Origin: an uncultured Pseudomonadota bacterium
Lineage (GTDB): Bacteria > BMS3Abin14
Reading direction: 5' to 3'
NCBI GenBank assembly: GCA_964454175.1
Contig: CAYVSA010000001.1
Span: 1-64,000 of the forward strand
Length of the DNA: 64,000 nt
A program made the position numbers. Each line of letters begins with the position of its first letter. Within the stretch, counting starts at the first letter, position 1. Shown piece by piece: positions 33,001-36,000 of the stretch.

Positions 33001-36000
33001 GCTTGATAAAGTGTTAACTTTCACAAGTTCAAGCGAAACAAAAGGGGAGGGTGTTGTGCTCCTCCCCTTGGGGTCTACAGTTTAAACAGGAGCATCAGGG
33101 AAATAACCAGAGAGTAGATAACCAGTGACTCGATGAGAGCCAGACCGATGATCATGGTCGTCATAATCTTTCCTGAAGCACCGGGGTTCCTGGCAATACC
33201 CTCCATGGCTCCCCTGATAGCGATGCCCTGACCAATACCGCCGCCTAAAGCAGCGATGCTGACACAAAGAGCAGAGCCAAGCGCTAAGGCGAAGCCAATA
33301 TTTCCGGGTTGAACGTCAACTCCAGCTGCCTGCGCTCCTTCCTCAGCTGCAAGGGCGAGCGGCGCCAAAGCTAGCACAACGATGGCCGCCAGAAGTGATA
33401 TGGCGATCTTCTTCTTCATGGATGCACTCCTCCTTTCCAAGATTCTATTCATATATATCAATCAGCATAAAAAGGCCAGCTTAATGAGCCTCCTCCAGTG
33501 CTCCAGTGATGTAAATGATAGAGAGAAGAGTAAATACGAAAGCCTGGATAAGGGCAACGAATATGCCTAGACCCATAAAAATTACGGGTATGAAAAGAGG
33601 CACAAGGCTGACAAAGATAGCAAGGAGCAGATGGTCTCCGAACATGTTGCCGAAAAGGCGGAATGAAAGGCTCACGATCCTTGCAAAATGTCCGATGAGC
33701 TCAACGATTATCATGAGAGGGGCCAGCCACAGGACCGGGCCCATAAAGTGCTTAATGTAGCTTGCCCCGTGGGTTTTAATTCCCACATAGTGGGTGGATA
33801 AAAAGATCACCAGAGCACAGGCAATGTTGGTATTCAGGTTGCTGGTGGGCGGTTCGAAGCCCGGGATGGTTCCCAGTAGATTTGAAAAGAGGATGAAAAA
33901 GGCTGTTGTCCCGATGAGGGGCAGGAAACGTCTTGCGTTTTCACCCATGAGTTGTTCCATGAAATCAAGGAGCAGCTTGACCCCCAGTTCCAGGAGGTTC
34001 GGTATGCTGAAGGTGCGGCCCTCAGGCATTACCCTGCCGCTTTTAAGTGAGCGATTAATTAGAATTGCTGCTCCTATGAGCAACAGGGAGACCAGGGCTG
34101 CGTGCATCACGGGCGCGGCATCAAGGCCCTCGATCTTCTCCAGGGCGTGTGCAATGGGTGTGTGTTCCAGATATATGAAAGATTCAGCTACCATCAGTGC
34201 TCCCGTTTTTCTTTTTGTTCCCCGGGAAGATCAGAAAGTCAGCAATCAGGCCTGCCGGCAGGACCAGAAGTCCGATTACCAGACCCAGGTATGAACCAAT
34301 TTTCCAGTGCATGAATCCAGCTATAATACCTGCAGTAAGGGCAAGTTTGGTTAGGTAGATCAACCCGTAAACCGCTCTTGCCAGAACCCCACCGGTAAAA
34401 AATGAGCCTACGACCTTCTCTGTGCCAAGAAGGTTCAAGATGATCAGGAAACCGCCCGCCATGACACCCTTGGTATATGGCGGTTTTCCCAGTATGAGAA
34501 AAAACAGTGCGGCTCCAAGCGTCAGTACCACGACCCAGAACTTGAGCCGCCTGAGCCTTCCACCGTCAGGGTGGGAATTCAATCTTTCGCTTCTTCCTCT
34601 TCTTCGAACACTGAGCCGCGAACGGCTTTTATGAGAGCCCGCCCCGCGGCAACGAAACCTAAGATCATGAAGAGCAGAGTCAGCCAGGGATCAGTGCCCA
34701 GCTTACGGTCCAGAAACATTCCAATAAGGAGGCCTATAACGACTGCCGCCCCCATTTCCAGACCCAGGCTGCTGTACTTTAAAAGATCGTAGAACGCCCG
34801 ACCCTTGGCCATTCGCTCTTCTCCTGCCGGGTCCGGATAATAAACCCTCCCGGGAACACCGCCGAAAAGATACAGAGTGACCAAGTGATTGTCAAGCAAT
34901 ATGGGGTTACTGACGACCATTTGCAGAGCTTAAACACTCTGGAATCAGCGTGTTTTCAAACGATATAAATTAACGGTCCAGATCACTGATTATAGCATGA
35001 CCTTTTCAATAGCCTTTTCATGCGCTTCTGCAGTTCTCGCAATATCCTCTTCAGTATGCGCCAGGGACACGAAGGCCGCCTCGAACTGTGACGGGGCAAG
35101 ATAAACACCCTCAGAGATCATCGCCATGAAATAGGATCCAAATATCCGGGTATCAGATGCCTTTGCGCCCGCGAAATCTGTAACGGGTCCCGGGTTGAAA
35201 AACGTTGTGAACATGGATCCAACCCTGTTGAAGGCGAGCTTGGCCCCGAGCTTTTTGTTGACGGCGGCCAAGGCCATGGCCAGATCAGATGCCATTTTCT
35301 CCAGGGATTCGTAAGTGCCGGGCCGTTCGAGAATCTCCAGGGTGGCTACTCCTGCTGCCATGGCAAGAGGGTTCCCGGAAAGGGTGCCGGCCTGGTAAAT
35401 GGGCCCTTCCGGTGCCATTTGCGACATGAACCTGGCTTTGCCGCCATAGGCTCCAACGGGAAGGCCTCCCCCAATGATCTTGCCCAGAGTGGTGAGGTCC
35501 GGATCGATGCCGTAAAGCTCCTGGACGCCCCCAAGGGCGACCCTGAACCCGGTCATTACCTCGTCGAAGATGAGCAGGGCCCCCTCGCGGCTGGTTATCT
35601 CCCGAAGACCTTCCAGAAAACCTTTTCCGGGAACCATCACGCCCATGTTGCCGGGTACGGGTTCAACGATCACCGCAGCTATCTGTTCGGGGTTCTGTTC
35701 GAAAAGAGCCTCTACCGATCCCAGGTCGTTGTACTCTGCTATGAGTGTGTTCTTTGCGTAATCTTCGGGTACGCCCGGGCTGTCGGGTACGCCGAGGGTG
35801 AGGGCGCCGGAGCCGGCCCTGACCAGGAGGCCGTCTGCGTGGCCGTGGTAGCATCCGTTGAACTTGATTATTCTGTCCCTGCCTGTTGCCCCCCTTGCAA
35901 GCCTTATAGCGCTCATAGTGGCCTCGGTGCCGGAGTTGACCATCCTGACCATCTCCATGGAAGGAACCGCGGCTATGACTTTACCGGCAAGGGTCAGCTC

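Follow-up and report, generated by a model that had tools for sequence, protein, structure and literature searches.

Two membrane modules, each with its own a and c subunits, accompany one F1 head and one b'/b stator in the genome of an uncultured Pseudomonadota bacterium and across its family, the closed genome G001 included. A preliminary description had proposed such sharing, and it is supported here by two intact modules and a promoter layout that fits. The reading that we favor, with moderate confidence, is that two F-type ATP synthases would be made from one set of head and stator genes by means of three transcription units. The predicted H+ module is encoded by a cassette in the window (the whole stretch of DNA that was analyzed, 64,000 nucleotides); the Na+-type module precedes the stator genes on another contig, C7. 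The cassette alone is ordinary; that the whole system represents a new variation on the organization of F-type ATP synthase is well supported by genomics.

The coupling ion and the ring size are regarded as fixed traits of a species' F-ATP synthase, altered by swaps of c residues or by the gain of an entire second enzyme. If true, a common head fitted with two interchangeable membrane modules, each under its own regulation, would be a third route. The family comprises 16 genomes, which are the whole phylum. The genome studied (G000) is a 2.2-Mb draft in 135 contigs, 98.5% complete and 0.4% contaminated.

The cassette in the window

A profile search of the window gives the minus-strand order hemL, atpZ, an atpI-like gene, atpB, atpE, and then a multiheme cytochrome gene. 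An atpZ-I-B-E cassette between hemL and this cytochrome, lacking b and F1 genes, had been described before, and it is found as described. The earlier start of atpZ at 34920 has to be moved: the ribosome-binding site and homolog alignment put it most probably at 34812, and a sigma-70-type promoter-like site lies at 34867..34895 (minus strand; TTGACA, 17 nt, TATCTT; 10/12 consensus). The cassette had also been placed just upstream of complex I. The neighborhood is correct, but complex I is encoded past hemL, on the opposite strand and in the other direction.

All 4 genes of the cassette are on the minus strand. The first, atpZ (34579..34812), belongs to the ATPase gene 1 family (PF09527, E 3e-18). 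Between it and atpB lies a gene for an atpI-like membrane protein (34184..34582), whose match to PF03899 (E 0.0064) is below the cut-off; it is assigned by position, has a homolog in 11 family genomes, and encodes a probable c-ring assembly factor of the cassette module. In Acetobacterium woodii, atpI is essential for the ring (PMC4320612). Subunit a of this hemL-type, predicted H+ module is encoded by atpB (33481..34194; PF00119, E 4e-48); its essential Arg region aligns with solved a subunits, it falls into a clade of its own in a tree, and its dN/dS is about 0.09-0.17. The single-hairpin c is encoded by atpE (33075..33419; PF00137; start set by its ribosome-binding site), and its best solved matches are c rings of the cyanobacterial/chloroplast type. 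This c subunit carries an N-terminal extension resembling a signal peptide (33348-33419), present in all family copies. An intrinsic-terminator-like hairpin with a T run closes the cassette (33034..33069, minus strand), as in 12/14 family genomes against 0.05 expected from shuffles. Outside the enzyme, the upstream neighbor hemL (34990..36273, minus strand; PF00202) adjoins atpZ in 11 family genomes, and an HgtR-type operator-like site 5' of nuoA (36462..36477, plus strand) has the same motif as that found 5' of the Na+ module on C7.

The gene order, with b and F1 genes absent, is that of the deltaproteobacterial split cassette (PMC3543383). In a quick tree with no bootstrap, the cassette a groups with hemL-type a subunits of other deltaproteobacteria (clade of 34 rows, SH-aLRT 91). 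Judged by order, tree position, and substitution pattern, the cassette is an ordinary deltaproteobacterial split Fo operon, intact and under purifying selection.

Several features of the surroundings deserve mention. A conserved motif at 33003-33026, which we take to be like a Rex operator from its consensus, is seen in the family alignment 3' of the cassette terminator and 5' of cytochrome genes that end in rex. This run (28670-32959) encodes a multiheme cytochrome, a cytochrome b, an NrfH-like multiheme cytochrome, and rex; it is conserved beside the cassette, with extra genes inserted in several relatives. The complex I operon is broken after nuoG and resumes at a nuoH-like gene; the intervening segment (43658-51592) holds a small protein, a second NuoE-like gene, and 2 large ORFs, both oxidoreductase-like, of 1027 and 934 aa. 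In G002, promoter and atpZ are separated by a P-II-like gene (L003:8200-8532; PF00543, E 4e-4, below cut-off), which is found upstream of the cassette in G059 and G153 (L132:4933-5253; L165:1469-1789); G004 has a remnant (L005:4924-5031), and G000 lacks it. Its product is a possible energy sensor for the cassette.

The head, the stator, and the Na+-type module

The genes on C7 run parA, parB, bactofilin, atpI, a, a 247-aa three-hairpin c, a single c, b', b, delta, alpha, gamma, beta, and epsilon. The F1 and stator operon is present there as first described, although the three-hairpin c gene had been left out of the account. Alpha, beta, gamma, delta, epsilon, b, and b' have one gene each in G000, all on C7; the profile search thereby bears out the single alpha/beta pair and the 2 a subunits reported earlier and extends the count to the other subunits. 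The 2 a subunits are 31% identical, and the single-hairpin c genes also number 2.

Profile searches found no V-type pair in G000, and a V-type partner was rejected. An N-ATPase identity was ruled out for either module: TIGR03306 and TIGR03322 are below cut-off, the gene order differs, and the clade is separate. The ion circuits of G000 include genes for Rnf, Nqr, a Na+-type pyrophosphatase, a CPA1 antiporter, and complex I; Rnf occurs in 15/16 family genomes. Searches of 5 genomes returned neither Mrp (MNHE) nor the beta subunit of Na+ decarboxylase (0/5 each), and fragments of the heme-copper family appeared in G000 only. At loci L175, L180, L181, and L182 of G000, a eukaryote-like citrate synthase gene is divergent from that of the CPA1 Na+/H+ antiporter, and the Rnf, Nqr, and Na+-type pyrophosphatase genes are found.

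Residues at the ion sites

The c subunits carry the motifs reported for them: ESLVIY in the cassette and E32 with ESTGIY on C7. Aligned to 3ZK1, the single c of C7 shows the two-carboxylate Na+ site of Fusobacterium nucleatum: E32, E65, S66, T67, and Y70 are present in 15/15 family operon copies, and these are the residues of the solved, Na+-bound site in the F. nucleatum c ring (PMC3692424). The cassette c has Q32, E65, S66, L67, and Y70 in 14/14 family copies.

Assignment of an ion to the cassette c depends on the rule applied. Where Leu, Ile, or Val occupies position 67, an enzyme is predicted to use H+, and Na+ enzymes have a polar residue there (PMC2359735); Leu in 14/14 cassette copies agrees with the H+ state. 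The older three-residue rule, in which Q...ES/T is the Na+ motif (PMC4320612), points the other way: its H+ class lacks this motif, and Q32, E65, and S66 are retained in 14/14. The H+ call rests on the single residue Leu67, the older rule would give Na+-type, and the retention of Q32, E65, and S66 is counted against an explanation by an H+ and a Na+ motor. A Burkholderia ring with E30, E61, T62, M63, and Y66 was measured as H+-selective (PMC5376962). In related hemL-type c subunits, position 32 is sometimes Ile or Met. We judge it likely, with fairly high confidence though not securely, that the cassette c is of the H+ type, as had been claimed from its motif. The R-N-P loops are similar in both c types.

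The three-hairpin c subunit

Among 5 AlphaFold models of the three-hairpin c, 1 is confident (pLDDT 88.5; the others 37-44) and has 6 long helices. Its best solved match is A. woodii c1 (4BEM), with an rmsd of 1.7 over 162 columns. The carboxylate is lost from all hairpins in 10/13 full-length family copies; the remaining 3 (G000, G004, and G011) keep Glu in hairpin 1 only. Every one of the 78 multi-hairpin c subunits scored outside the family (2 to 6 hairpins) keeps at least 1 Glu. Because a single E-to-Q change stops a fused c10 ring (PMC8809890), 3 adjacent hairpins without a carboxylate are hard to reconcile with ATP synthesis. The three-hairpin c may reduce how many ions are used for each ATP, tilt the enzyme toward pumping, or be left out of the ring.

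As in the hybrid rotor of A. woodii, a multi-hairpin c with lost carboxylates stands beside a single Na+ c; the A. woodii pattern of two hairpins with one ion site is replaced by three hairpins. A representative search returned many relatives of 240-430 aa. Loci L048-L119 are F-type operons whose c subunits fuse 2 to 6 hairpins, with up to one Glu in six, from Desulfobacterales, loci labeled Margulisbacteria and Cloacimonetes, and others.

Conservation across the family

Parts of the C7-type operon with the three-hairpin c occur in 16/16 family genomes. The cassette c is present in 14/16 and the cassette a in 13/16 (in G005 the contig ends just upstream). Loss of the cassette from G012 and G013 was considered and rejected: these genomes (78% and 80% complete) also lack hemL, so that the absence looks like an assembly gap, and in G013 a contig edge coincides with the start of the cytochrome gene. 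Low dN/dS likewise led us to reject decay of the cassette: in unsaturated pairs it is about 0.06-0.17 for the cassette a and c, and equally low for the Na+ a, the Na+ c, and the three-hairpin c. By this measure, both modules are maintained in the family.

An adjacent b'/b pair is found in 16/16, with extra b matches above cut-off confined to additional loci in G014 and G009 and the N-ATPase of G013. Gamma was detected in 14/16: once in 12, twice in G014 (N-ATPase), and twice in G009. The closed G001 and the single-contig G059 each show one gamma and one b'/b pair over cut-off. The earlier claim of one F1 stands across the family, but some genomes have further rotary ATPases: N-ATPase loci in G013 and G014, and a further A/B-like pair in 6/16, of which that of G001, the one inspected, reads as V/A-type. 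The second b-delta-alpha-gamma piece of G009 (L019, G009:C251) is on a 3.6-kb contig and groups with another genus; it is probably bin contamination. Between L022 and L037 (G003 and G014), dS is 0.11 for gamma and beta and >1.5 for the Na+ a and the three-hairpin c, a contrast that suggests recombination within the operon.

Promoters, terminators, and operator

Promoter, terminator, and operator are used here for sequence patterns. The strict promoter pattern was TTGACA-16-18-TAnnnT, with expected counts from shuffles. It lies between the Na+ c and b' in 15/15 family genomes (0.03 expected) and in the hemL-atpZ gap in 9/11 (0.00 expected). Of 12 control junctions, 11 lacked it; at the twelfth, which separates two cytochrome genes, it occurred in 2/5. 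A consensus promoter between the Na+ c and b' means that head and stator could be made without the Na+ module. No terminator-like hairpin follows the Na+ c (0/15), compared with 12/14 for the cassette c.

Upstream of the Na+ module, a looser promoter pattern, scored without a shuffle control, occurs in 12/16 and overlaps a palindrome that matches the footprinted HgtR site of Geobacter (PMC2817479). Scored at no more than 3 mismatches in 13, this operator-like motif precedes the Na+ module in 13/16 (0.33 expected) and nuoA in 8/10 (0.5 expected); among family genomes it precedes atpZ in 0/11 and b' in 1/16. The 6 best sites in G000 lie 5' of the Na+ module, citrate synthase, acnB, icd, mdh-fumarase, and a GntR-like gene. 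Operator-like sites before TCA-cycle, nuo, and atp genes are the pattern of the HgtR regulon, and the targets of the best sites correspond to its published target set (PMC2817479). None of the best sites is on the rnf or nqr contigs of G000. A search with RHH_1, a sigma-54 scan, and a list of activators gave no convincing candidate for hgtR with its hydrogen-sensing activator; the GntR-like gene behind the operator is a candidate for an alternative regulator.

Occurrence outside the family and history

The two-module layout is not specific to the family. Of 558 loci related to the three-hairpin c, the best 80 come mostly from Desulfobacterales. There the Na+ module forms a separate operon that brings its own b'/b; because of this, a single stator may be poorly suited to both a subunits. 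In Desulfonema magnum and G043, one gamma is accompanied by two a and two b'/b pairs, and Desulfosarcina variabilis matches them but has an N-ATPase as well; the b'/b pair of G044 and G045 is single, as in the family studied here. Among 120 genomes from the phylum of D. magnum, 18 have at least two a subunits: 9 have an extra N-ATPase only, and 9 have the Na+ module together with a hemL-type cassette. In 4 of the latter (G059, G077, G125, and G153), the Na+ module lies inside the F1 operon, and the b'/b pair is single. Of the 121 genomes in this phylum sample, 10 have the Na+-type a, always alongside the cassette type (10/10), and the hemL-type cassette a is the only a in most of the sampled Desulfonema relatives.

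Regulatory patterns outside the family vary. A TTGATT-17-TAnnnT site, read by eye, lies 5' of b' in G059, G125, and G153; the c-b' gap of G044, G045, and G077, 3 of the 6 single-stator genomes outside the family, holds no promoter, and stand-alone modules have one in 1/57. In G044 and G045, the operator-like motif lies instead 5' of the hemL-type cassette, which speaks against a general regulatory rule.

In the a tree, a quick tree, the subunits fall into clades of the Na+, N, and hemL types, and small groups recur in the Na+ clade and the hemL clade alike; long-branch artefacts affect the b tree. The two a lineages are separate, each tied to its own c type, in 24/24 genomes compared. Their distances correlate (r 0.65 over 24 genomes), weakly so in a Mantel test with one genome per lineage (r 0.47, p 0.06). 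Neither the trees nor the distance tests separate insertion of the Na+ module from its ancestral presence. Loci labeled Cloacimonetes and UBP3 have parA-parB 5' of a Na+ operon with a multi-hairpin c. It is plausible that an intact Na+ operon was ancestral and was later joined and mostly displaced by the hemL cassette. Contrary to the earlier framing, it is the cassette that looks inherited, ordinary, and used by default; the Na+ module looks like an accessory.

Proposed mechanism and alternative readings

In the mechanism that we propose, P3, in the window, would supply a and c of the H+-type motor, and P2, the internal promoter on C7, would supply b', b, and F1 alone; together they would give a default H+ enzyme, as in Geobacter-like split operons. 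P1 would lie behind a repressor operator shared with TCA-cycle and complex I genes and would read atpI, a, the three-hairpin c, and the Na+ c into b'-F1. With the repressor off, read-through from P1 would place the Na+ module on one message with b'-F1 and add a Na+ enzyme whose rotor is hybrid and low in sites. The own atpI of each module fits separate ring assembly, and the choice of ion lies in Fo (PMC7594442). Complex I has this operator as well, so that a proton pump and the Na+ module would come under common regulation, an oddity that counts against this scheme. The promoter layout is what sharing of the head would need, and this part is supported by the patterns found. What the sequences show is which genes are present, that they are conserved and under purifying selection, which residues form the ion sites, and that promoter-, terminator-, and operator-like patterns are conserved; we infer that the units are transcribed, that either module assembles with the single stator and F1, which ion each one uses, and which repressor acts and to what signal it responds. 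Working hybrids of a Na+ Fo with an H+ F1 exist.

Both modules might instead carry Na+, or be promiscuous, and differ mainly in ring size and ions per ATP: a shift of gear, not a switch of ion. The Q32, E65, S66, and Y70 of the cassette c, which satisfy the Q...ES/T rule, and the wealth of Na+ pumps in G000 speak for this, but Leu67 as the H+ state (PMC2359735), the H+-selective Burkholderia ring (PMC5376962), and Ile or Met at position 32 in related c subunits make it improbable. Nor does it seem likely that ATP is made by the cassette module only, with the Na+ module as an ATP-driven Na+ pump or brake, or with the three-hairpin c as a scaffold outside the working ring. The Na+ enzyme of A. 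woodii makes ATP. Its ring has a two-hairpin c with one silent hairpin (4BEM), and at least one Glu also persists in all 78 multi-hairpin c subunits scored outside the family. The reading draws its appeal from the carboxylate-free copies in the family, from the arrest of fused c10 by one silent site (PMC8809890), and from the observation that the Na+ module never occurs alone.

The a and c subunits might also combine freely between the modules, so that rings are mixed or pairs crossed in place of two defined motors; this would suit the similar R-N-P loops and a review that credits ion specificity to the c ring and none to a (PMC7594442). We hold it to be quite improbable, given that each module has its own atpI and its own a, with such low identity between the two, and that the a lineages keep to their c types in every genome compared. 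Very improbable, finally, is a cassette that works without F1, or that has an unseen partner in the form of a second divergent stator or F1 missing from the assemblies. G000 is a draft and b subunits diverge fast, but the closed G001 and the single-contig G059 offer no such partner over cut-off, most sampled Desulfonema relatives have the cassette type as their only a, and split operons are a published ancestral state (PMC3543383). Two enzymes from one head and stator set remain the reading that we favor.

What the system would mean

A broader interpretation, which we put forward tentatively and with more doubt than confidence, is that of a natural ion- and gear-switchable ATP synthase: an F1 and stator with their own promoter, an H+ module as default, and a repressor-controlled Na+ module whose working rotor includes the three-hairpin c, which in most of the family has no ion site. 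The layout would then be a preserved intermediate that explains the split operon, and the Na+-to-H+ transition would proceed by replacement of a module, not by point mutation of c. If true, a shared head with exchangeable modules would offer that transition a concrete path and would account for why the deltaproteobacterial operon is split. How many consecutive sites a rotary motor can skip is put to the test by rotors that contain several silent hairpins in a row. Because the two-stator form is found in cultured sulfate reducers (D. magnum and D. variabilis), much of this is testable now.

Comparison with known systems

In the literature searched, outside of which most subscription journals fall, we found nothing on two ion-specific modules sharing one F1 and stator, and nothing on the internal promoter or a carboxylate-free triple c. 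Brandt and Muller 2015, on hybrid rotors, may already list multi-hairpin c subunits in these groups. Desulfatiglandales have two to four atpE copies, with the ion left unresolved (PMC13343851), and the available text of PMC11887813, PMC5109826, and PMC10052568 does not address the two-module question; the supplements of PMC4154653, PMC13343851, and PMC11887813 may bear on the novelty of the arrangement.

The split operon of Geobacteraceae and Pelobacter, atpX-F-H-A-G-D-C plus atpZ-I-B-E, is the ancestral state in Geobacteraceae (PMC3543383). It shares with the window the same cassette genes in the same order without b or F1, and its F1 operon starts with b'; unlike there, a Na+-type atpI-a-c-c module precedes b' here, with an internal promoter behind it. 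Desulfococcus oleovorans carries an ectopic F0 that is a complete duplicate, possibly from Thermotogae, noted in 2014 (PMC4154653). As here, two a and c sets accompany one F1 and the second set is distant in sequence; however, that set has its own b'/b, as in D. magnum and D. variabilis, whereas one stator must serve both in this family. The available text of PMC4154653 gives no ion reading, multi-hairpin c, or regulation for the second F0.

The Na+ F1Fo of A. woodii (4BEM), with its hybrid c1/c2 rotor, gives the best match in sequence and fold to the three-hairpin c, and it too has a multi-hairpin c bearing Gln for Glu beside a single Na+ c; the system here differs in having three hairpins instead of two, at most one carboxylate, and a further module of the H+ type within the same cell. 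N-ATPases likewise supplement the house enzyme with a second rotary module, one predicted to transport Na+. Theirs is a separate clade with its own operon (beta-epsilon-a-c-b-alpha-gamma), its own F1 and b, and no delta, and neither module here belongs to it. In terms of regulation, the closest counterpart is the HgtR regulon of Geobacter sulfurreducens, whose operator is almost identical and whose targets coincide: citrate synthase, acnB, icd, mdh, nuoA, a GntR gene, and an atp promoter (PMC2817479). In Geobacter this operator lies 5' of b'; here it lies 5' of the Na+ module, and b' has a second promoter that is free of the operator.
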